From Parcubacteria group bacterium (GTDB taxonomy: Bacteria > Patescibacteriota > Minisyncoccia > Moranbacterales > UBA2206), in NCBI GenBank assembly GCA_041664225.1, contig JBAYLE010000001.1, forward strand, positions 132,939-196,938: DNA of 64,000 nucleotides, read 5' to 3'. A program made the position numbers and the translations under genes. The stretch's first letter is position 1; each line of letters starts with the position of its first letter. The notes beneath the pieces were generated by a model. The model worked only from the letters and a program-made list of their open reading frames with translations, was not told the DNA's origin and ran no database searches. Positions 669-52,714 of the stretch are shown piece by piece.

Positions 669-879
669 TATTTCTCTCTTACTTTTTCTTTCCGCAAGAA
701 AAAGTAACAAAAAGAACTCTCAGCCGGACAAAATTTCCAAACAAATTCTGCGCTCGCAAGCTAAAAGTTCACGGCTGCTTCCGCCAGGGACGGAATCAAG
801 GAACTTTTCAAACGCTCGCTCTCTTGAATTTTGGAGAAATTTTGTAGGCTGAATAATTTTTTTATTGGCAATAATAATA

Positions 880-2909: not shown

Positions 2910-4598
2910 TTATTCTTTCACGACCTTGCCACCCATAATTTCCATGGCTGAAGCAAGGAGGGAATTTTGTTCTCCTGGTTTTTCTTCCTTTTTCACTTCT
3001 GTTTTGATGCCAGCTTCTTTATTGGTGACAGTTTTGAGTGTTATTTTCGACCCAAGAATTTTACCAAAAACATCTTCAACCGTCAATCGATTAGCTGGGT
3101 CGTTAAGTTTTTGTTTGTAAAAATCATATGGTGTGGCTAGGGTTATGACATTATTTTCAGCGGAAACAACCTGGCAGCCAAAAAGTAGGGCTTGCAAAGA
3201 ATGGTTAAGTGGCTTAACGGCTTCCAAAATTTTATTCCAATTGCTCTGAACATCATAAGTCAAAATTTGCTTATGATTTTTGTCTGTCGTTTTATTTTCT
3301 GGCTGCTCCATTGTTTCTTGTTTGGCCGAGTCTTTTGAATCTTGGTCATTGTTCGCCGCGGCGGATTGAATTTGTTTAGGATTTAGCCCCGAGTACTCGG
3401 GATCGGATTTAGGATTTTGTATGTTGATATCATTATTTGCAACGCTTTTATTGGATTGTTGCATGTTATATGCTTCATGTTTCATGATAGGAAAGGTATG
3501 CGTTGCTTTGATAATGGCAATTTCCAATGGCAGTTGCGGCAGCATAGATGAAGAAATTTTTCTTTGCGCGTCCATAAAAAGATTAATAGCGATGATTATT
3601 TTTTGTAGCTCGGTCTTTTTTGATTGTTCAATCATTTTTTCAATCTGCTCACTGGTAATTTCATACGCGAAAGAAGACCTGAGTTCCGGGCTGATCTTGA
3701 GGAGCATCAGTTGGCGCAGATAATTGACGAGGGATTTATTGAACACCTCCAGATCATAGCCATCATTCAAAAGATTATTTATTTTTTGAATAGCACCGGT
3801 CGAATCTTGATTGACAATCATCTCAGCAATTTCAAAGGCTTGTGTGCGGTCGGTGGTGCCCAAAATTTCCTCAACTTCTTTGATGGTGATGTTTTTATCT
3901 TCCAGGGCAATAACTTGTCCGAGCAAGGACTCCGCGTCGCGCATTCCGCCTTCGGCACTGAGCGCAATCATTTCCAATGAAGCCACATCAATTTTAATTT
4001 TTTCGTTTTTAGTGATGAGGATCAGTTTTTCGATAATATTTTGTATAGGCAGGCGTGCGAAATCAAAGCGCTGGCAGCGACTCAGGATGGTTTCCGGAAC
4101 TTTGTGGATTTCAGTGGTGGCTAGGATAAAAATAACGTGAGAAGGCGGTTCTTCCAAGGTTTTTAGAAGTGCGTTAAAGGCTCCGGCCGAAAGCATATGT
4201 ACTTCATCGATGATATAGACTTTGTATTTCAACGATGTCGGCGGCATGGCGATTGTCTCGCGCAATTCGCGTATATTGTCCACGCCAGTGTTGGAAGCGG
4301 CGTCGATCTCGATTATGTCTAAGGACCTGCCATCATTTATCATTTTGCAGACTGGGCAAGTTTCACAAGTGATTGCGTCTTTGGTATGCTCGCAGTTTAC
4401 GGTTTTGGCAAAAATCCGGGCGATGGAAGTTTTACCGGTTCCGCGCGGTCCTGTGAAAAGATAGGCTTGACCGACACGATTATTTTTTATGGCATTGGTA
4501 AGTGTTTGAACAATATGGCGCTGTCCAATTATTTCGGAGAAATTTCGGGGGCGATATTTACGGTAAAGGGTTGTTGATTCCATAGTCTTAGATTTCAA
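2910..4598 (-). CDS. dnaX: DNA polymerase III subunit gamma/tau
   Basis: N-terminus LYRKYRPRNFSEIIGQ, Walker A GPRGTGKTS, zinc module CETCPVC, and the SRC motif (ILSRCQRF). Confidence 0.95.
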   Translation of the reverse strand: MKSKTMESTTLYRKYRPRNFSEIIGQRHIVQTLTNAIKNNRVGQAYLFTGPRGTGKTSIARIFAKTVNCEHTKDAITCETCPVCKMINDGRSLDIIEIDAASNTGVDNIRELRETIAMPPTSLKYKVYIIDEVHMLSAGAFNALLKTLEEPPSHVIFILATTEIHKVPETILSRCQRFDFARLPIQNIIEKLILITKNEKIKIDVASLEMIALSAEGGMRDAESLLGQVIALEDKNITIKEVEEILGTTDRTQAFEIAEMIVNQDSTGAIQKINNLLNDGYDLEVFNKSLVNYLRQLMLLKISPELRSSFAYEITSEQIEKMIEQSKKTELQKIIIAINLFMDAQRKISSSMLPQLPLEIAIIKATHTFPIMKHEAYNMQQSNKSVANNDINIQNPKSDPEYSGLNPKQIQSAAANNDQDSKDSAKQETMEQPENKTTDKNHKQILTYDVQSNWNKILEAVKPLNHSLQALLFGCQVVSAENNVITLATPYDFYKQKLNDPANRLTVEDVFGKILGSKITLKTVTNKEAGIKTEVKKEEKPGEQNSLLASAMEIMGGKVVKE

Positions 4599-4667
4599 AT
4601 AATTAAGAGCACCCTTTGGGTACCCCTAATAAGTTGTATTTCTTCACTCATTGTAGCATACAAAAAA

Positions 4668-4689
4668 CCGCTCGAGAAGAGTGGTTTTT
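4668..4689 (-). terminator. probable terminator downstream of the GtrA-like gene (A-run/T-run flanked, near bidirectional)
   Basis: Hairpin ccgctc-gagaa-gagtgg flanked by aaaaaa and ttttt, ~20 nt beyond the stop of the 4706..5359 gene. Confidence 0.4.
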
Positions 4690-4705
4690 GCTACGTAAAA
4701 GCTGG

Positions 4706-5359
4706 TTATTTTTTGAAAACTATAAACTTATAGCCCAGGAAATTCCAAGCTAGTCCGATTATGCTGCCGGCCATGGCTCCTATTAGTGCCCATTGGTCTA
4801 TCCCTAATCCTCCGAACGGATGGATTGCACGGAATACATAAGAGGCCACAATAACATTGATAAGGAATCCAATAATACTAACCACGAAAAATTGTAGAAA
4901 CTCGGTGCTGGCTTTTTTTTCTGAATCAGCTGAAAATGTCCAATATTTGTTCCAATAATAACTGTTGACATTGGCAAGTATGAATGAAACGCTTTTATAG
5001 AATGAATAGGCTGTAAGGCCAACGAAGACGACGACAGAAGATTCAATCTGAAAGAGCGCTCTAAAAATAAAGATCAATAAAGCTAGAATTCCCAGATCAA
5101 CCAGCGTATTAAGCACTCCAATGATTGCAAACTTAGCTATTTGCCAGATAACTGCAATTTTTTTAGAGATATAATAAGCAATTACCAGCCCGAAGGGTGT
5201 AGCGATAATAAAAAAAGGCACAGTTATAAGGGCAAAACGATCAAAAAGTTCAGGCTTGGCTGCTTTCAAAACAGGCAGAAACAAGAGTCCGATTAAGAGG
5301 CCGGCGAGCACGCTGAGGGCGTAATCCTTTTTTGTGACTACGGTTGCATTTGCCTCCAT
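4706..5359 (-). CDS. GtrA family membrane protein (polysaccharide synthesis/translocation associated)
   Basis: The C-terminal half (GVLNTLVDLGILALL...NSYYWNKYWTF...) resembles the GtrA-like fold; multiple TM helices. Confidence 0.5.
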   Translation of the reverse strand: MEANATVVTKKDYALSVLAGLLIGLLFLPVLKAAKPELFDRFALITVPFFIIATPFGLVIAYYISKKIAVIWQIAKFAIIGVLNTLVDLGILALLIFIFRALFQIESSVVVFVGLTAYSFYKSVSFILANVNSYYWNKYWTFSADSEKKASTEFLQFFVVSIIGFLINVIVASYVFRAIHPFGGLGIDQWALIGAMAGSIIGLAWNFLGYKFIVFKK

Positions 5360-18808: not shown

Positions 18809-19726
18809 ATGGAAAAGATATATGATTTGCTCATAATCGGTGCCGGTCCGGCTGGTTTGGGAGCGTCTATTTATGCATCGCGCTATAAATTGGATCACGT
18901 TGTGCTGGGTGATGAAATCGGGGGACAAGTAGTGGAGGCTTCAGAAATTGAAAATTGGGCAGGAGAAGTTTCGATTCCCGGAAAAACGCTGATGGAAAAA
19001 TTCCAGCATCACGCGCATCATTTGGGGGCTAAAATTATTCAATCTGATGTCTCATCCGTTTCTAAAACCGATGCAGGATTTGAAGTAGTGGCGGGAAATG
19101 AAAAATATTTGGCCAAAACTATTATTCTAGCTTTAGGCATGAAAGCGCGCAAAATGAATGTGCCGGGCGAAGATAAGTTTGTGGGTAAAGGCGTATCGTA
19201 CTGCGCGACTTGCGATGCGATGTTTTTTCGCGGGAAAGACGTGGTGGTAGTCGGCGGGGGAGACGCGGCGGCGACGGCGGCGATTCATCTCAGTGAATTC
19301 GCGAGGAAAGTTTCTCTTCTTTATCGTGATGCCTCCAATTGGGAACCTTCTTGGGAAGAGCAACTGGACAAATTAAATGTAGAAAAAATTTCTTGCACGA
19401 ATATCAAAGAAATAAAAGGAGATCAGAAAGTGACGGGGATTGTTTATGAAATTGCCGATGGAGAAAAAGAACTTTCTGTTCAAGGAGTATTTATTGAAGT
19501 TGGTACAACGCCGGGCGTGGCGGTGGCACAAAGTTTAGGCGTGGCTCTGGATGAACAAAGTTATATTATTGTTGACCAGACGCAAGCGACAAACATTGAA
19601 AATGTTTACGCGGCGGGCGACGTCACCACCGGCTCCAACAAATTCCGCCAAATTATTACCGCTGTGGCCGAAGGGGCGGTGGCGGCCGGAAGTTTGTATC
19701 GGAAGTTAAAACTTACGAAAAAATAA
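18809..19726 (+). CDS. trxB: thioredoxin-disulfide reductase
   Basis: FAD site GAGPAG, redox CATCD, NADPH site GGGDAA. Confidence 0.92.
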   Translation: MEKIYDLLIIGAGPAGLGASIYASRYKLDHVVLGDEIGGQVVEASEIENWAGEVSIPGKTLMEKFQHHAHHLGAKIIQSDVSSVSKTDAGFEVVAGNEKYLAKTIILALGMKARKMNVPGEDKFVGKGVSYCATCDAMFFRGKDVVVVGGGDAAATAAIHLSEFARKVSLLYRDASNWEPSWEEQLDKLNVEKISCTNIKEIKGDQKVTGIVYEIADGEKELSVQGVFIEVGTTPGVAVAQSLGVALDEQSYIIVDQTQATNIENVYAAGDVTTGSNKFRQIITAVAEGAVAAGSLYRKLKLTKK

Positions 19727-19727
19727 T

Positions 19728-19947
19728 ATTTCCACTTTCTTTTGGCAGCAAAAGAAAGTGGAGAAAAAAAACTGCCGGCACAGGCTCGTGCTGGCTGAAT
19801 TTCTAATCTGGCTCGCTAAAATTTATACGCTCGCGGCGAGCTATGATAAATTTCTTAACGTTCGCCAGCTTGAAATTCAGAAATGCACTTCGCAATGTGC
19901 GGGAATCTGGTTTGATTACCAAGAAGTAGAATATTTCGCATGCTCGA
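19728..19947. repeat. copy A of a ~220-bp structured repeat family (two copies in window)
   Basis: ~90% identical to 52300-52519. Contains a perfect 12-bp hairpin ccactttctttt-ggcagc-aaaagaaagtgg, then gccggcac-aggctc-gtgctggc, then the long-range pair ctgaatttc...gaaattcag and further hairpins. Confidence 0.6.
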
Positions 19948-20036
19948 TTTATTTATAAAGTTAGTTTTTTTGAAAAATAAAAAGACCACCAAACGCTGAT
20001 TATACGAGCGAGTGGTGGCGGATACTGGATTCGCAG

Positions 20037-21942: not shown

Positions 21943-22556
21943 GCAAATTAGTCAATGATCTGATACAAAAAGGTTATCTCAAAAGCGATTCGATTATCGA
22001 CGCATTTTCCGAAATCAGCCGGATGGAATTTGTCCCGAAGGAATTAGAGTTGGAAGCCGAGGAGGATATCGCTTTGCCAATTGGGTATGGGCAGACTATA
22101 TCACAACCGTTGGTGGTGGCCTTTATGTTTGAACTTCTGGAGCCGCAAAAAGGACAAAAAATATTGGATATTGGCAGTGGATCAGGTTGGACAACTTCGC
22201 TATTGGCTTATGTAGTGGGGACAGAAGGCAATGTAATCGGCATTGAGAGAATAAAAGAACTTAAGGATTTTGGAGAAAAAAACGCGGACAAATTTGGCTT
22301 TGTTAAGAAAGGCATTGCGGAATTTGTTGGCGGCGATGGTAGTTTGGGCTTTCCTGAAAAAGCGCCCTATGATCGAATTTTAGTGTCAGCAGTTTCATAT
22401 GAAGTGCCGGAAGTCTTGAAAAATCAATTAAAAGTAGGCGGAAAATTAGTCATGCCGATTCGCAACAGCATAATTTACCTTGAAAAGAAAGGAGAAAATG
22501 ATTTTTACAAGGAAGAATTTCCCGGCTTTTATTTTGTGCCATTGGTCATAAATTAA
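21939..22556 (+). CDS. pcm: protein-L-isoaspartate O-methyltransferase
   Basis: GQTISQP and DIGSGSGW motifs. Confidence 0.85.
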   Translation: MSKLVNDLIQKGYLKSDSIIDAFSEISRMEFVPKELELEAEEDIALPIGYGQTISQPLVVAFMFELLEPQKGQKILDIGSGSGWTTSLLAYVVGTEGNVIGIERIKELKDFGEKNADKFGFVKKGIAEFVGGDGSLGFPEKAPYDRILVSAVSYEVPEVLKNQLKVGGKLVMPIRNSIIYLEKKGENDFYKEEFPGFYFVPLVIN

Positions 22557-22575: not shown

Positions 22576-23583
22576 ATGTTAAGAAGAATGATAATTGCAG
22601 CAGCGGTGGTGGTTGCCTTGATCGGCAGTCTTTTTTATTTTAATCACCAGGTTGGTTTTTCGCACGGAAGTTATACGCAGAATAAGATTTTTAAAATTGT
22701 TAAGGGTGATGGCAATACTACAGTCGGAAAAAATTTGGAAAAAGACGGATTAATTTCTAATGATTGGTATTTTTATTATTATGTCCGCTCACACGGCCTT
22801 TTAAGCAAGCTTTATCCGGGTGAATATCTTTTGAGTGGCAATATGACTATTCCGGAAATTGCGGCTATCATTACTAACCCCCAAAAAGTTTATGAGCGAG
22901 TTACTTTCATCGAGGGCTGGACCGCCAAACAATTTGCGGAAGAATTGAGCAGCTATGGTTTTGGCGGCGATGCTTTCTTGGCTTTGGTTAAAAATCCGCC
23001 GGCTGAAATTGTTTCTCAATTTAAGGTTTTTTCCGACAAACCGAAAGACGCGGCACTTGAAGGTTATCTTTTCCCTGACACTTATTATTTTTCCAAAGAA
23101 GCGACTCCAGAGGGAATTCTCAAAAAAATTCTTCAGAATACAGACACACAGTTGAGCACAGATATTTCTAGCATCGCCAAAGCACAAAATAAATCGCTTT
23201 TTCAGATTTTGATTATGGCCAGTATCATTGAAAAGGAAGTGAAGACTGATGCGGACCGAGTGCTAGTCTCTGGAATTTTTTGGAACCGAATCAAGATTGG
23301 GCAAGCTTTGCAGAGCGACGCGACTCTGACCTATATTTTAGGTGACAAAGACGCGGCTCACAGTGGAGCGCAGTTGGCGACTGATTCTCCGTATAATTCC
23401 TACCAAAACAAGGGTCTGCCGCCCGGGCCGATTTCCAATCCGGGGTTGGCTTCGATCATCGCGGCCATCCATCCGCAAGACTCGGCCTATAATTATTTTT
23501 TAAGCGACCTAAAAACTGGTCAAACAATTTTTTCCAAAACATACGACGAACATCTGGTGAACAAAGCGAAATATGGATTATGA
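22576..23583 (+). CDS. mltG: endolytic murein transglycosylase MltG (YceG family)
   Basis: N-terminal TM, then LFPDTYYF, SIIEKE and LQSDATLTY motifs. Confidence 0.9.
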   Translation: MLRRMIIAAAVVVALIGSLFYFNHQVGFSHGSYTQNKIFKIVKGDGNTTVGKNLEKDGLISNDWYFYYYVRSHGLLSKLYPGEYLLSGNMTIPEIAAIITNPQKVYERVTFIEGWTAKQFAEELSSYGFGGDAFLALVKNPPAEIVSQFKVFSDKPKDAALEGYLFPDTYYFSKEATPEGILKKILQNTDTQLSTDISSIAKAQNKSLFQILIMASIIEKEVKTDADRVLVSGIFWNRIKIGQALQSDATLTYILGDKDAAHSGAQLATDSPYNSYQNKGLPPGPISNPGLASIIAAIHPQDSAYNYFLSDLKTGQTIFSKTYDEHLVNKAKYGL

Positions 23584-30071: not shown

Positions 30072-32078
30072 ATGGCTGAAATTAATTTTTTTGCAAAAAC
30101 AAACTTTCGAAACCAAGAGCGCATTTTTGGCATTAAGCGTGATGACCGGCGGCGGCACATGTATGTGATCGGGAAGACTGGCATGGGTAAATCCAATATG
30201 CTAGAAAATATGGCTATCCAGGATATCCGCAATGGCGAGGGTGTTTGTGTTGTCGACCCGCATGGCGAATTCGCGGAAAAGATGCTCAGGGCCATACCTT
30301 CAAATCGAATCAATGACGTTATTTATTTCAATCCGTCAGACTCGGAATTTCCTATCGCTTTCAATATTTTGGAAGCAGTAGATGAGGACAAGAAAAATCT
30401 TATTGCCTCCGGCATGATGGGCGTTTTCAAAAAGATATGGCCGGACGTCTGGAGCGCGCGGATGGAATATATTTTAAATAATACTATTTTAGCACTGCTT
30501 GATTATCCCGGTTCGACGATGCTGGGAGTGAATCGTATGATGGCTGACAAGGACTATCGCAAGCGGGTGTATCCGAAAATCAAGGATCCGGTGGTTAAGT
30601 CTTTCTGGCTCAATGAATTTGACAAGTGGGATGATAAATTCCGCAAGGAAGCCGTGGCGGCCATCCAAAACAAAGTTGGACAATTTTTGTCATCCTCTGT
30701 TATCCGCCATATCGTCGGCCAGCCGAAATCAGCTATTGATATGCGCGACATCATGGATAATCAGAAAATCTTGATTATCAATTTATCAAAAGGCCGTATC
30801 GGGGAAGATTCAATGCGGCTTTTGGGTGGCATGATTGTTACCAAAATCCAGCTGGCAGCCATGGGCCGCGTAGAGATACCTGAAGAAGAAAGAAAGGATT
30901 TTTACCTGTATGTTGATGAATTCCAGAATTTTGCTACGGAATCGTTCGCCAATATTTTGTCAGAAGCCAGAAAGTACAAATTAAATTTGATTTTAGCCCA
31001 TCAATATATCAACCAGTTGATTTTTGACAGCAACACGACAGTGCGCGACGCGGTTTTTGGAAATGTGGGTACTATTATTTCCTTCCGGGTCGGTGCGGAA
31101 GATGCCGAGCATTTGGAAAAAGAATTTGATCCAGTTTTTTTGATGAATGATATTGTTAATCTTTCCAAGTATAATATTTATTTGAAATTGATGATTGATG
31201 GGGTGGCGGGCGATGCTTTTTCGGCCGCCTCTTTGCCGCCGTTGGATTTGTCGGATACGAAGGAAAGCGAAGAAAAGGTTATCCGCATTTCGCGCGAACG
31301 TTATGGAAAAAATCGTGCAGAAGTGGAAGATCGTATTGCCCGCTGGAGCGGTATGATAATGGAGGACACGGATGACGTGATAATTCATAAAGTAGAACCC
31401 GTTCGCAATGTTGTACCGAATATTGTAGTTGTGCCAAAAACTAAAAAAATTGTGGGCGATTCTGATTTGATCAATACTGTGCCGCCAGTCATCAAAGTTG
31501 TTCCGAAAAATCCCAAACCGGTGAGCGATGCCATTGTGGTTGAACCGGTTAAGCGGGCTGCGGTAGTCCAAAACGAAGTTGTGGATACTGCGAAAGATTC
31601 AATTATTATCACAGAAAAATCCAACATTGAACAAAAAGAAAAAAAAGAATTATATGAAACACTTTGCGATACTTGCGAACAAAAGATTTATGTTCCATTC
31701 AAGCCTGATCCAAATCGGCCGGCTTTTTGCAAGGAATGTCTGAAAGATTATCAGCGAGCGCTGGCGAAAGCGCGCAACCCGCAAGTCGCGAATGACCAAC
31801 AACAGCCGGTGAATAATCGACCTGCCCGCAATGTTGCGCATAGCGCTACGGGCGGACAACAACTAATAGTGGTAAAGAAACCCGAGACAGTTAAGTCAAG
31901 CGCAAGAGAAGAAGTGCGCAAGGTGTATGTTCCTCAAGATAAGCCCATGAGTTTGTCGCAAATGTCACACATTGCGCCGAAAAAATTTAAAGCGGTCAGA
32001 CAAAAGCCGCAGGTCAATCTGAATGATGTCAGGGATTTGATCAATAAGACGAAAAAAGATGATAGCAAACAAAATTAG
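30072..32078 (+). CDS. TrwB/TraD/VirD4-like P-loop NTPase (type IV coupling protein-like AAA domain) with C-terminal zinc ribbon
   Basis: Walker A VIGKTGMGKS, then VCVVDPHGE (the DPKGD-like motif of coupling proteins) and Walker B FYLYVDEFQNF. The C-terminus carries CDTCEQK...CKEC. The protein has no TM domain of its own. Confidence 0.6.
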   Translation: MAEINFFAKTNFRNQERIFGIKRDDRRRHMYVIGKTGMGKSNMLENMAIQDIRNGEGVCVVDPHGEFAEKMLRAIPSNRINDVIYFNPSDSEFPIAFNILEAVDEDKKNLIASGMMGVFKKIWPDVWSARMEYILNNTILALLDYPGSTMLGVNRMMADKDYRKRVYPKIKDPVVKSFWLNEFDKWDDKFRKEAVAAIQNKVGQFLSSSVIRHIVGQPKSAIDMRDIMDNQKILIINLSKGRIGEDSMRLLGGMIVTKIQLAAMGRVEIPEEERKDFYLYVDEFQNFATESFANILSEARKYKLNLILAHQYINQLIFDSNTTVRDAVFGNVGTIISFRVGAEDAEHLEKEFDPVFLMNDIVNLSKYNIYLKLMIDGVAGDAFSAASLPPLDLSDTKESEEKVIRISRERYGKNRAEVEDRIARWSGMIMEDTDDVIIHKVEPVRNVVPNIVVVPKTKKIVGDSDLINTVPPVIKVVPKNPKPVSDAIVVEPVKRAAVVQNEVVDTAKDSIIITEKSNIEQKEKKELYETLCDTCEQKIYVPFKPDPNRPAFCKECLKDYQRALAKARNPQVANDQQQPVNNRPARNVAHSATGGQQLIVVKKPETVKSSAREEVRKVYVPQDKPMSLSQMSHIAPKKFKAVRQKPQVNLNDVRDLINKTKKDDSKQN

Positions 32079-33454: not shown

Positions 33455-33940
33455 TTGGAAATAAATTTGGAGGTTTATGCAAGAGAAAAGAAAAAAAGCA
33501 TGAAATCACGAGAAAATTATCAACTATCGCCAGAAGAAATAGAAAAAGCAGAGGATAATATGTCGGAAACGGAAAAAAGGTTATCTGAAATTAGAAATGT
33601 AAGTGTGGAAAATTTTAAAAGAAATACCGGTAAAAGTGGCATGTTGAACCTGCTGAATAAAGAGATGCCACGAATTGGAGATTTTAATGTGATAATGAGT
33701 AAATGGAAAATAGCGGGAGAAATTGAGGGTCATCAGATAGAATTAGTAGCTGATGCTGATCATGAAGATAATGACAGATTTTATAATTATAGAGGTCTAA
33801 TAGATGGAAAAGAATTAACAATGGAGGACGCCCAAATGCTTTGGGAGAAATATCATGCTTTCGCAGAAAAACTGAATCTGGAAGAAGAAGAGCTAAAAAA
33901 GCGTGCCCGGACAGAGAATGCGCTAAAAGACGTCCTTTAA
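33455..33940 (+). CDS. hypothetical protein (N-terminus paralogous to the next gene)
   Basis: ENYQLSPEEIEKAEDNMSETEKRLSEIRN aligns to ENYQPTLGEVEDAKENMTEKEKKSSEVRE of the downstream ORF. Confidence 0.45.
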   Translation: MEINLEVYAREKKKSMKSRENYQLSPEEIEKAEDNMSETEKRLSEIRNVSVENFKRNTGKSGMLNLLNKEMPRIGDFNVIMSKWKIAGEIEGHQIELVADADHEDNDRFYNYRGLIDGKELTMEDAQMLWEKYHAFAEKLNLEEEELKKRARTENALKDVL

Positions 33941-33965
33941 GGGTTATATTTGGGGAAGTAAAATT

Positions 33966-35108
33966 ATGGAATCACCAGAAAATTATCAGCCAACTCTCGG
34001 GGAAGTAGAAGATGCGAAAGAAAATATGACAGAGAAAGAAAAGAAAAGCTCGGAAGTCAGGGAGCAAAATTGGGAGCAGCAACAGCCACCGTGGGAAGAT
34101 TTTGGTGATAATGTTGATGAAAAAGGCTATAGAAAACCGCCAAAACCAGAAGATGAGAAAAAGATGAGGCAGAGAATCGTTGAATTAGGAGAGCTTTTTA
34201 AGGACGCTGATTTTAAATGGCATCTCGATGGTGCTATCAATATTTCATTAATGAAAGGCGAGTTTATCGGTGTCCATAAAGATGTTGATATTTCCGTTGA
34301 AAAGGCGGAGCTTTCAAAGCTAGACGATCATTTGGGGCAAAGGGGTTACGGACTATTTATTTCTTATCTTCCGAAAGGATCTGAAAATAAAATTTTGCGC
34401 AGAGTCGGAGCGGAAAATTTCGAAGTAACGACCGACGAAGCATTACAAATTGCGGCAATTGATGAAAATGGAAAATTAAAACAAGATAGGGAATTGAATT
34501 TTATCGACGTGCATATTATCAAGCGGAATGAAGATGGGGTTCAGCTAAGCAAGCACGGTAATGGCGTAGGATTGCCGCAAAGATGGTCCGAATCCCAGAC
34601 AACGGAATTTAAATCTGAAAAAATCAACTTGGCTCATCCCGCAGAAATTGCCTATTTCAAGTTGTGGCAGGAAAGAAATTACGATCTGACTGATTTACAT
34701 AAATTAGCGGAAAGCGGCAAATTAACCAATGAAGACATCAGTGAGGTTGAAAATATTATTGAAAAGGAATTTATTGAAAACAAAAAAAGAGGAAAGCATG
34801 GGATGGAAGATGTGGCTATTGAAATTACAGCGAATATGTCTGCGGATGAAATTTTAAATATTTTTTCCAAAAATCCAATTTTCAAGAGTGGTGTTGAAAA
34901 TTGGAGAGAAGTATTCAGTGAATTTACTGAAAAAATTGCGGAAAGTAAAGATAAATCTGCTGAGTTTATGTTTAATTTAGGTTTAAAATTTTTTAACGAG
35001 GAGGGCAGAAATAATATAATTCGGCAAAAGATTAAAATAGTCAGGCAGTGGATAAGGGAAGCGGAAAATTTGCAAGAAGTTCGTGACAAATTAAAAAATA
35101 ATTTATAA
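33966..35108 (+). CDS. hypothetical protein with Lnu(A)/ANT(2'')-like minimal nucleotidyltransferase core
   Basis: KWHLDGAINISLMKGEFIGVHKDVDISV matches the W-LDGG-x-G-x-H-x-D-I-D pattern of lincosamide / aminoglycoside-2'' nucleotidyltransferases. Long N- and C-terminal extensions. Confidence 0.45.
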   Translation: MESPENYQPTLGEVEDAKENMTEKEKKSSEVREQNWEQQQPPWEDFGDNVDEKGYRKPPKPEDEKKMRQRIVELGELFKDADFKWHLDGAINISLMKGEFIGVHKDVDISVEKAELSKLDDHLGQRGYGLFISYLPKGSENKILRRVGAENFEVTTDEALQIAAIDENGKLKQDRELNFIDVHIIKRNEDGVQLSKHGNGVGLPQRWSESQTTEFKSEKINLAHPAEIAYFKLWQERNYDLTDLHKLAESGKLTNEDISEVENIIEKEFIENKKRGKHGMEDVAIEITANMSADEILNIFSKNPIFKSGVENWREVFSEFTEKIAESKDKSAEFMFNLGLKFFNEEGRNNIIRQKIKIVRQWIREAENLQEVRDKLKNNL

Positions 35109-51342: not shown

Positions 51343-52293
51343 TTAGTAATTTTTTAGAATACTTTTTATTTCAGCAACGCTTTTGGCTTGGACCAGCTGG
51401 CGGCGGAGGTCGGAAGCGCCGGGGAAGCCTTTGATGCCCCAGGCCAGATGCTTTCTGATTTCAAACATTCCTAAATATTTCTTGTCTTTCCAAATCAATT
51501 CAGCATGTTTGATGAGTACTTTTTTAATTTTTTTAAAATCATACTCGGTATATTTTCCAGATTTTATAAGTTCTTTAATTTGCGCAAATATATATGGTCT
51601 ACCCCAAGCTCCGCGGGCGATGCCGAGGCCGTCGAGCAGGGGATACTCCTTTAATATTTTTACTGCTTCTTCTGGCGTGTTGATTCCACCATTAGCCAGA
51701 ACAATTTTATCCGGAATAATCTTTTTTATTTTTTCTACTATTTTAAAATCAACTTCGCCGTGGAAACTGCCTTCATAAGTTCGGCCATGCACCATCACGG
51801 CGGAAAAGAGGAGATCTTTGACATCTTCAATAAAATCAAGAGCAGTGTGTTTTTTAATGCCGGCACGGATTTTGAGGGAAACTGGCAGATCGGTATTTTC
51901 GCAAACGGCCATGATAATTTTTCTGGCCAATTCTTTTTGTGGCATCAGGGCGCAGCCGGAACCGTGGCCAAAAACCTTTTTGTCTGGACAGCCGAAATTT
52001 ATATCGATGCCGTCCGGTTTTATTTTTTGAGTTATGATTTGTGTGGCTTTGGCGAAATGAGCTGGCTCTTTGCCGAAAAGCTGAATGACGTAGGGCCGTT
52101 CTATTTTTTTAAATCTCACTAACCTCAAGGTTTTTTGCGGCTTGAAAAAAAGCGCTGAGACGCTGGCCATTTCGCTGTAAACAACATCTGCTCCATGTTC
52201 TTTGCAGATCTGCCGGAAAGCGCTGTCGGTGATGCCGGCCATGGGTGCCAGAGCTAAAATCGGTCTGGGTAATTTTTTCCAAAAGTTTTTCAT
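51343..52293 (-). CDS. dus: tRNA-dihydrouridine synthase
   Basis: ALAPMAGITD, DINFGCP and the catalytic Cys region. The start is set at MKNFWKK (52293); the longer track ORF runs into the repeat element. Confidence 0.85.
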   Translation of the reverse strand: MKNFWKKLPRPILALAPMAGITDSAFRQICKEHGADVVYSEMASVSALFFKPQKTLRLVRFKKIERPYVIQLFGKEPAHFAKATQIITQKIKPDGIDINFGCPDKKVFGHGSGCALMPQKELARKIIMAVCENTDLPVSLKIRAGIKKHTALDFIEDVKDLLFSAVMVHGRTYEGSFHGEVDFKIVEKIKKIIPDKIVLANGGINTPEEAVKILKEYPLLDGLGIARGAWGRPYIFAQIKELIKSGKYTEYDFKKIKKVLIKHAELIWKDKKYLGMFEIRKHLAWGIKGFPGASDLRRQLVQAKSVAEIKSILKNY

Positions 52294-52299
52294 GTTTTT

Positions 52300-52519
52300 G
52301 TTTCCACTTTCTTTTGGCAGCAAAAGAAAGTGGAGAAAGAAAACTGCCGGCACAGGCTCGTGCTGGCTGAATTTATAATCTGGCTCGCTAAAATTTATAC
52401 GCTCGCGGCGAGCTATGATAAATTTCTTAACGCTCGCCAGCTTGAAATTCAGAAACGCACTTCGCTATGTGCGGAGATATTTTATTATTGAAAAAAGACG
52501 CATATTTCACATGCTCGAG
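52300..52519. repeat. copy B of the ~220-bp structured repeat family
   Basis: ~90% identical to 19728-19947 in the same orientation. It starts ~7 nt upstream of the dus start codon on the opposite strand. Confidence 0.6.
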
Positions 52520-52546: not shown

Positions 52547-52714
52547 TTACTCCGATATTTTGATGTCTCCCTCCGGGGTTTCTTCAACTTTGTATCCTAA
52601 CGCTTCTATTTCTTTTTCCAGGTCTTTTACCTTGTCTTCAGGAGTTTTTTCTCCGTCAGCCGGCGGGTTATTGTCATCGCAAGCGCAATGTCCGCATCCG
52701 CATGAATGTCCCAT
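52547..52714 (-). CDS. possible small Cys-rich protein (55 aa, not in ORF track)
   Basis: MGHSCGCGHCACDDNNPPADGEKTPEDKVKDLEKEIEALGYKVEETPEGDIKISE. It sits ~20 nt downstream of cysS on the same strand. Confidence 0.3.
   Translation of the reverse strand: MGHSCGCGHCACDDNNPPADGEKTPEDKVKDLEKEIEALGYKVEETPEGDIKISE

Follow-up and report, generated by a model that had tools for sequence, protein, structure and literature searches.

Immediately upstream of the tRNA-dihydrouridine synthase gene dus in a Parcubacteria group bacterium lies a structured repeat, here called copy B, that we consider with moderate confidence to be a member of a lineage-specific family of short, non-coding, dispersed hairpin repeats, resembling REPINs, miniature inverted-repeat transposable elements (MITEs) or derivatives of IS200/IS605, and passively co-transcribed with the genes that it adjoins. 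Three copies of the repeat are present in the window, as we term the whole stretch of 64,000 nucleotides analyzed (contig JBAYLE010000001.1), a fourth (L058; handles of this form denote individual loci) lies on the same contig and strand, and about ten further loci were identified in related Parcubacteria/Moranbacteria contigs. The structural constraint on these sequences is real at the level of the family and looks DNA-like or strand-neutral.

A dispersed family of hairpin repeats

Members of the family were collected by exact-pattern scans of genome and of metagenome collections, a search with the spurious translation of the repeat, contig look-ups near orthologous genes, and a covariance model. 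Homologues of Dus and ComEC assign the organism to Candidatus Moranbacteria / Parcubacteria. Within the window, a direct repeat of 189 nt (19729-19917, copy A; 52301-52489, copy B) shows 94% identity, with estimates for the pair ranging from 94-97% and reaching 97.1% in the pairwise comparison of type 1 copies. A pattern search with exact 26-30-mers from the repeat returned A and B only (chance expectation 0) and thus no third close copy in the window, while the covariance model recovered a divergent 'type 2' member, copy C, beyond which nhmmer found no additional copies there. The close, type 1 copies comprise those of L001, L002 (two), L011, L014/L017, L015, L020 and L032, and the divergent copies recovered with the covariance model are copy C, L013, a second copy in L020, L034, L036, L057, an internally deleted copy in L033, and L058 (9638-9825). 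Further copies were found on several contigs of the metagenome Ga0209048 and on contigs of other samples; copy number is roughly one per 20 kb sampled. Four assemblies end inside the element (L002b, L015, L031 and L059), as would be expected of a repeat.

Beyond these contigs the family has few visible relatives. The exact-pattern scan of the genome collection gave a single match, L001 (CAZUWD010000054.1), a 4.7-kb contig of a metagenome-assembled genome labelled Bdellovibrionales, where the element sits between a csoR-like gene and a gene for a heavy-metal-associated domain; given the distribution of the family, this contig is probably misbinned and Parcubacteria-like. Searching a set of 5.8 billion proteins with the translation of the repeat returned six spurious open reading frames (ORFs), and no true copies were found in IMG/VR (four pattern scans) or in plasmids and phages (BLAST). 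No Rfam 15 family reached its gathering threshold in the whole window or in permissive scans of copies B and C and L034, which gave sub-threshold hairpin look-alikes only, the best being Phe_leader (28 bits against 55, over a single hairpin, P1). A literature search returned no account of such a repeat family in Candidate Phyla Radiation genomes.

All members share three parts: the P1 hairpin, an A-rich linker and a rod (Table 1). P1 measures 12-14 bp across the family, with pyrimidines along its 5' arm and purines along its 3' arm in all members, and 9 of its 13 pairs change on both sides. The linker has the consensus A(G/C)AAA(G/A)AAACU in all types, and the rod, about 128-150 nt in length, consists of two inverted arms that make one long hairpin, capped in copy B by the apical hairpin GCTCG-CGG-CGAGC (52401-52413). 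The rod of type 1 can alternatively fold into two local GCAC/GTGC hairpins; type 2 sequences cannot form these, and the long-range rod is therefore favoured. Conservation is concentrated in P1, the linker, the internal-loop strands GCUAAAA / UUAACGC and the apical module, the last of which (CGGCUGCUUCCG...CGGAAUCAAGGAAC) is identical in copy C, L034, L036 and L058, while the outer rod is freely variable. The element is AT-rich, with a core of 175-200 nt. Conservation across the family stops at ...GTGCGG (52474), and the terminal block of the tail (52502-52518) is clearly common to A and B only, with a weak resemblance in L001. In copy C, which sits past rplL and the rplL terminator (637-665), P1 occupies 679-707, the closing stem CAGCC...GGCTGA extends to 852 and a T-run follows at 857-866. 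A pseudoknot between the P1 loop (GGCAG) and a downstream CTGCC, possible in type 1, was considered and dropped, as inspection showed that L011 and types 2 and 3 do not conserve it.

Table 1. Coordinates in the window of the repeat, its parts and the adjoining genes (the top strand of the element is defined as the strand that reads P1 first)
Feature	Position	Strand	Description
Copy A (type 1)	19729..19902	+	Repeat begins 2 nt, and P1 stem 4 nt, past the trxB stop codon (19724-19726)
Copy B, conserved core (type 1)	52301..52474	+	Covariance-model match 52299-52484, 219.7 bits
P1 of copy B	52303..52334	+	Perfect 14-bp hairpin, loop GCAG; 5' arm polypyrimidine, 3' arm polypurine
Linker of copy B	52335..52346	+	A-rich, single-stranded, GAAAGAAAACTG; U-rich on the minus strand
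Rod of copy B	52347..52474	+	Imperfect palindrome of ~128 nt; closing stem CCG-GCACA / TGTGC-GG
Variable tail of copy B	52475..52518	+	52475-52501 poorly conserved; 52502-52518 = ATATTTCACATGCTCGA
Copy C (divergent, type 2)	674..862	+	Covariance model 45.9 bits, E 5.5e-10; nhmmer 1e-29
dus	51343..52293	-	tRNA-dihydrouridine synthase, 316 aa from the ATG at 52293; PF01207
Small Cys/His-rich protein gene	52547..52714	-	55 aa, MGHSCGCGHCACDD...; upstream of the element on the dus strand

Identity among copies follows the genome and not the locus. Comparing loci and genomes, type 1 copies share 92-98% of positions (about 9 copies, with several divergent types coexisting), and they cluster by genome: A and B share 97.1% and the L020a-L002a pair 98.2%, but the orthologous pair A-L020a, both located downstream of trxB, only 94.7%. 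The flanking genes of the window and L020 are 71-80% identical. Rearranged copies are also present. L013 is a mosaic of a type 2 outer rod and a type 1 core with an extra solo P1 just upstream (211-433); L017 is nested, an old P1 being followed by a complete type 1 element and then an old 3' end (478-735); L020 carries two copies tail to tail (4442-4806); and the L033 copy is internally deleted. The arrangements in L020, L013 and L017 suggest that new copies may prefer sites in or beside existing copies, or that copies may recombine.

We propose that the element would fold into hairpins as single-stranded DNA, for example on the lagging-strand template, and would owe its mobility to that state. 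Copies could then be propagated or homogenised within each genome by a putative trans-acting enzyme, by gene conversion or by both, and would persist in the few intergenic positions that a very compact genome leaves open to insertion, with transcripts of the element arising as a by-product of read-through from neighbouring genes.

Base pairing, strand and orientation

The sequence-only reading of copy B had described the differences between A and B as compensatory-looking changes in loops or at stem flanks, as expected of a structure-constrained RNA. The three differences that it quoted do exist (52339, 52375 and 52466), and two more are present in the core (52433 and 52456). When the five are placed on the consensus structure of the family, three fall in unpaired columns, the change at 52375 breaks a terminal C-G pair by converting it to A.G, and 52433 (T/C) lies within a helix and exchanges G.U for G-C. 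No pair is altered on both sides between A and B, and the description as compensatory therefore fails. Nor is there a significant excess of loop changes: three of five in unpaired columns could arise by chance (P about 0.2 by a binomial estimate from 58 unpaired and 112 paired columns), and among eight close copies variable columns are equally common in paired and unpaired positions (33/112 and 18/58, respectively; Fisher p = 0.86). Because no A/B difference is compensatory, the A/B pair alone is uninformative on structural constraint. Both strands of the element are much more stable when folded than shuffled controls (z scores of -5.3 and -5.0). A template/variable repeat pair of a diversity-generating retroelement was also considered and is ruled out, the A/B differences being neither adenine-specific nor within genes.

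The family as a whole is far more informative. In an alignment of 14 matches, guided by and fitted to the model structure, compensatory change is extensive: standard pairs fill 94.2% of cells, compared with 36-48% when partners were slid by 1-3 columns, and 33 of 56 pairs change on both sides, compared with 3-12 in the same controls. Divergent copies swap entire helices for other complementary sequences. The closing stem, CCGCACA/TGTGCGG in type 1, is CAGCC/GGCTG with ACAAAATTTC/GAAATTTTGT in type 2, and GCGAGC/GCTCGC is replaced by GCTGGC/GCCAGC in L036 and L058. The pairs are almost exclusively Watson-Crick, as the 721 cells of the fixed structure comprise 674 Watson-Crick pairs, 5 G.U on the top strand, 10 A.C (equivalent to G.U on the bottom strand) and 32 others; minimum-energy folds contain 12 versus 25 wobble pairs. 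A structured RNA would ordinarily admit many more such pairs. Neither measure assigns a strand: 5 versus 10 of 721 cells are too few, and the minus-strand fold is equal to or more stable than that of the top strand.

The genes beside the element are unrelated (trxB, dus, rplL, comEC, rbfA, nfo, csoR, uvr and membrane proteins), and its orientation to them is mixed. It runs in the same direction as co-directional neighbours in L001, L017 and L057, is antisense between co-directional genes at copy B, L002a, L032, L034 and L036, and lies between convergent genes at copies A and C and L011. A more consistent pattern emerges with respect to GC skew, which is positive over the entire window (0.04-0.22), including the 45-56 kb region where most genes run on the minus strand; the window probably lies within one replichore, with the plus strand as the leading-strand sequence. 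The top strand of the element is the G-rich strand for all four copies on the source contig and, with the elements masked, also in L034, L036, L002 (two), L020a, L001, L014, L015, L011 and L013, so that the copies antisense to local genes are among those that agree; the exceptions are L020b and L057/L033. By our own grouping, about 10 of 12 locus-lineages agree with the G-rich strand (naive binomial about 0.02), a weak result in view of the many short contigs and the use of GC skew as a proxy. The near absence of wobble, the occurrence in both gene orientations and an orientation that tracks GC skew together point to a constraint on DNA or on both strands. The structural constraint proposed for the repeat is thus supported at the level of the family, whereas its nature as RNA is not supported in the form proposed.

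A tally over loci shows that the P1 side of the element is tighter to gene ends than the rod side, which lies 10-135 nt away. P1 follows a stop codon by a few to about 11 nt in A, L001, L011, L017, L020a and L057, and precedes a start codon by 9-28 nt in B, L034, L036, L032, L020b and L002a. In L058 (9638-9702), P1 and the linker encode the last ~20 residues and the stop of ComEC (LLSLFAKKVTKKLSSRLIN*). In this tail, as in that of L017 (478-521), the pyrimidine arm is read as Leu/Phe and the purine arm as Lys/Arg, so that the peptide resembles the close of a membrane helix with basic residues behind it. The idea that an insertion of the element had split comEC was rejected, as all Moranbacteria ComEC homologues are about 480-520 aa long.

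The dus locus and other features of the window

Copy B is positioned as the sequence-only reading had it, with repeat similarity starting at 52301, 7 nt from the dus ATG, and the base of the P1 stem 9 nt away. The complement of the first hairpin does occupy the initiation region: on dus-sense (minus-strand) RNA, P1 has a folding energy of -17.8 kcal/mol and ends 9 nt before the AUG. Gene callers extend dus to a GTG at 52353, within the element (P0007, 336 aa); the true start is the ATG, because orthologues begin at MKNFW. Read along the dus strand, the order is cysS, the small Cys/His-rich gene, a weak hairpin with U6, the rod complement, the U-rich linker, P1, nine A-rich bases and the AUG. 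The weak, bulged hairpin (52497-52516) followed by U6 (52491-52496) is possibly the terminator of the small gene, although the terminator scan made no call on it. The product of that gene, rich in Cys and His at its N-terminus and conserved over its C-terminal half, matched no Pfam family and may bind metal; longer His/Cys-rich versions occur in L033 and L034, and the synteny of cysS, the small gene and dus is kept in several relatives.

Association of the element with dus is not consistent, and the orthologous site shows turnover. Among seven dus loci, the element is antisense in three (type 1 in the window, type 2 in L034, type 3 in L036), sense in two, where the rod end faces the AUG (an AT-rich type in L057, the internally deleted copy in L033), and absent from two (L035 and L038/39). 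The Dus proteins of L033 and L057 differ by eye at a handful of residues, yet the two loci carry quite different versions of the element. The placement of the P1 complement 9-11 nt before the AUG is shared by dus of the window, L034 and L036 and recurs at rbfA of L032. Because some dus loci lack the element and others carry it reversed, it is not required for dus, and it is not a dus-specific regulator.

Any effect on dus expression would instead follow from position. A Shine-Dalgarno-like motif lies within 20 nt of the start in only 2 of 47 long ORFs of the window, whose leaders are A/T-rich; the lineage seems to initiate translation largely without Shine-Dalgarno pairing, and initiation therefore probably relies on an unstructured A/U-rich leader. 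The idea that P1 supplies a Shine-Dalgarno sequence is moot for the same reason. Any mRNA entering dus from upstream would carry the rod complement, the U-rich linker and the stable P1, which could dampen dus initiation or cap a processed 5' end, as a side effect of insertion and not as the purpose of the element. The further proposal that the element provides a promoter is not borne out, as the promoter scan found no sigma-70-like promoter in the element or upstream of it, and the terminator scan gave weak 3' hairpin calls only.

Repeats may also have entered Dus coding sequences. Many Moranbacteria Dus proteins, namely the orthologues P0010, P0011, P0014, P0019, P0022, P0027, P0034, P0035, P0042, P0049, P0054 and P0061, carry in-frame insertions at one spot, after ...IFAQIK.L and before YDFKK, which aligns near ~51520-51560 (minus strand) in the window, where dus has no insertion. 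Recurring inserted peptides are 'QNPSLLSKERCREATER', 'ACHPELDSGSNK..RFRVKPGMT' and 'GHRMSN...', and the insertions look like translated palindromic repeats put into coding sequence, comparable to the Rickettsia palindromic elements.

Elsewhere in the window, which contains no transposase or recombinase, the only gene linked to DNA transfer encodes a 668-aa TrwB/VirD4-like coupling ATPase with a treble-clef zinc finger (30072-32078, plus strand). A direct repeat of 83 nt with 71% identity (33494-33576 and 33960-34042, plus strand) lies at the starts of the adjacent ORFs 33455-33940 and 33966-35108 and probably reflects paralogous N-termini, and a second short repeat is present at 22327-22366 and 22961-23000.

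Known repeat systems and competing explanations

Several known systems share part of this architecture, REPINs and IS200/IS605-type elements being the nearest in their logic. Like the REPINs associated with RAYT transposases, the element is a short non-coding intergenic repeat in which two inverted arms make a long hairpin, and each type 1 arm holds a small palindrome (GCAC...GTGC). A typical REPIN is about half the length of this element. The element also differs in being asymmetric, with P1 and the linker outside the palindrome, in its AT-rich arms of about 60 nt, in its low copy number and in that no RAYT was seen in about 200 kb of related sequence. Copies persist at orthologous sites and a genome-level 'master' would seem to be better conserved than the surrounding genes, and REPIN master sequences stay identical across strains and even species (10.1101/2021.07.10.451892). 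A replication-linked mechanism acting on single-stranded DNA would explain both Watson-Crick-only pairing and strand bias (PMC3116915; 10.1101/2021.07.10.451892; PMC6006769), and IS200/IS605 and REP systems work on the lagging-strand template (PMC6006769). Repetitive extragenic palindromic (REP) sequences are defined as GC-rich imperfect palindromes of 20-40 nt with a GTAG or CGTC tag (PMC3733652); no such tag is found here at the expected position, GTAG being absent in type 1 and occurring only inside type 2 3' ends (TTTTGTAGGCTGA).

With MITEs, Correia/NEMIS, ERIC, BOX, RUP and Rickettsia palindromic elements, the family shares a small, non-autonomous, dispersed and stem-loop-forming nature, as well as the occurrence of copies beside genes in either orientation, co-transcribed and sometimes overlapping coding ends; its modular mosaic composition recalls BOX and bacterial interspersed mosaic elements (PMC2229807, PMC3184786). 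Like MITEs, which are below ~500 bp, the element is small, non-coding and present in multiple dispersed copies, with no conserved reading frame, but P1 at its 5' end has no inverted counterpart in the 3' terminus (GTGCGG or GGCTGA) and there is no consistent target-site duplication. There is no sequence similarity to any of these families, and conservation of the interior and P1 with a variable outer stem is the reverse of that in a typical MITE. The non-autonomous elements derived from IS200/IS605 (PATEs) likewise lack inverted terminal repeats and target duplication, have a left-end hairpin, and match in the apparent replication-related orientation bias and the strict DNA-type complementarity. 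However, P1 and the 3' hairpin (CGCAC-N8-GTGCG) are unrelated to each other, the left flanks are merely AT-rich with no conserved 5' target of 4-5 nt, and no TnpA/TnpB was seen. Covarying helices, conserved loops and a length of about 180 nt are reminiscent of Rfam cis-regulatory RNAs and small RNAs, from which the element differs in having no fixed orientation or gene association and almost no G.U. As membership in every named family fails, we file the element as a new family of a known class with a hypothetical mobilising agent; it is a new, well-defined hairpin repeat family and not a new kind of system.

Several observations weigh against a dispersed hairpin repeat. No transposase, RAYT or other HUH enzyme was seen, either in the window or across about 130 kb of annotated sequence from related loci. 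There are no terminal inverted repeats, and the flanks of 13 copies show no consistent target-site duplication or conserved target motif, with sporadic T-rich low-complexity flank matches in C and L020b only. Conservation of P1, the linker, the internal-loop strands and the apical module beside a variable outer rod, unlike a typical MITE, would suit a functional RNA or a protein-binding hairpin. Old copies have remained complementary although the genomes that carry them are tiny and prone to deletion, a hint that a host function is under selection. In addition, the alignment behind the pair counts was fitted to the model structure, and the orientation bias derives from loci that are not independent of one another and lie on short contigs, with GC skew serving as a proxy. 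Template switching in quasi-palindromes, or gene conversion between copies, can yield 'compensatory' change by mutation alone.

The competitor we take most seriously, although we judge it rather improbable, is a domesticated RNA module that punctuates transcription units, in which the transcript of either strand shapes mRNA ends: the rod and its A/U tracts would terminate transcription in both directions or be cleaved by RNase III, the linker would serve as an endonuclease site, and P1 as a protective hairpin capping the 3' end after a stop codon or the 5' end before a start codon. The main argument for such a module is that the P1 side sits closer than the rod side to gene ends, be they stops or starts, and a module functioning on both strands would need pairs of the Watson-Crick kind only. 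The type 2 copies, whose rod is preceded by an A-rich linker and followed by a T-run, fit as well, as do the retention of structure at orthologous sites between genomes whose Dus proteins are about 75% identical and the scarcity of Shine-Dalgarno motifs (2 of 47 genes), which should make local structure matter for initiation. However, ordinary short terminators already stand beside copies A and C, the element is absent from the same site in some relatives, its orientation follows GC skew and not local transcription, and a 130-nt rod far exceeds the needs of a terminator. This explanation overlaps with a dispersed repeat, as origin and function can both hold. We regard as unlikely a bolder version of events in which P1, the linker and an invariant apical motif on a covarying stem form a hairpin module oriented to the replication strand and read by the host or by a novel enzyme; such a module would be either a new class of single-stranded DNA mobile element in the Candidate Phyla Radiation, moved by a novel protein, or a structured nucleic acid under selection, serving to set mRNA ends or working at the replication fork in genomes whose translation is not led by Shine-Dalgarno pairing.

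An independently transcribed, multi-copy family of structured small RNAs, with a conserved apical domain and acting in trans or by binding protein, would account for the strong covariation, the conserved unpaired motifs and apical module, a sequence better conserved than adjacent coding DNA and the U-rich stretches past the rod in several copies, and would be new given the lack of an Rfam match. It is nonetheless quite unlikely, as there is no conserved promoter inside the element or upstream of P1, where unrelated coding DNA adjoins it, there are hardly any G.U pairs, folding of the minus strand is at least as stable, P1 lies within the comEC coding region in L058, and types are swapped at orthologous loci alongside deleted and nested copies. 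Less probable again is the leader or promoter element acting in cis on dus that was originally suggested. In its favour are the P1 complement, which three genomes place 9-11 nt before the dus AUG, the weak terminator-like hairpin with U6, which if functional would leave dus in need of a promoter inside the element, and the TATAAA that copy B alone has for TAGAAA on the minus strand through the change at 52375. Against it, in addition to the missing sigma-70-like promoter, the same element stands beside at least eight unrelated genes in both orientations, some dus orthologues lack it (L035, L038/39) or have it in the reverse orientation (L057, L033), and three different sequence types occupy the dus site. 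Finally, NCBI annotates an ORF across copy A (19758-19958, plus strand) as a zf-TFIIB domain protein, and its 66-aa product P0006 does match PF13453 over LEIQKCTSQCAGIWFDYQEVEYFA with 25.6 bits (cutoff 22, E 7.9e-6), an oddly good score for a match spanning the 3' end and tail of the element (…CTSQCAGIWFDYQEVEY). A protein-coding role is largely refuted, as the match covers only profile positions 14-36 of 41 and lacks the N-terminal CxxC, ORFs of other copies give no PF13453 match, indels break the frame in copy B, L001 and L002a, no ORF in copy C reaches 50 aa, and the region is under base-pairing constraint. The ORF of copy A is probably a spurious gene call.

The family provides a clean example of a hairpin kept over the long term through dozens of double substitutions, and a caution against taking 'compensatory change' by itself as proof of an RNA gene. 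It also explains the assembly breaks and at least two questionable annotations, the dus extended to a GTG start in the element and the 'zf-TFIIB' protein, and it can supply coding sequence, as with the ComEC C-terminus and stop in L058. Interspersed repeats are considered rare in the small, streamlined genomes of the Candidate Phyla Radiation. Should complete genomes confirm the strand bias, it would suggest transposition through single-stranded DNA, or a symbiosis like that of REPINs, neither of which is known from this phylum.

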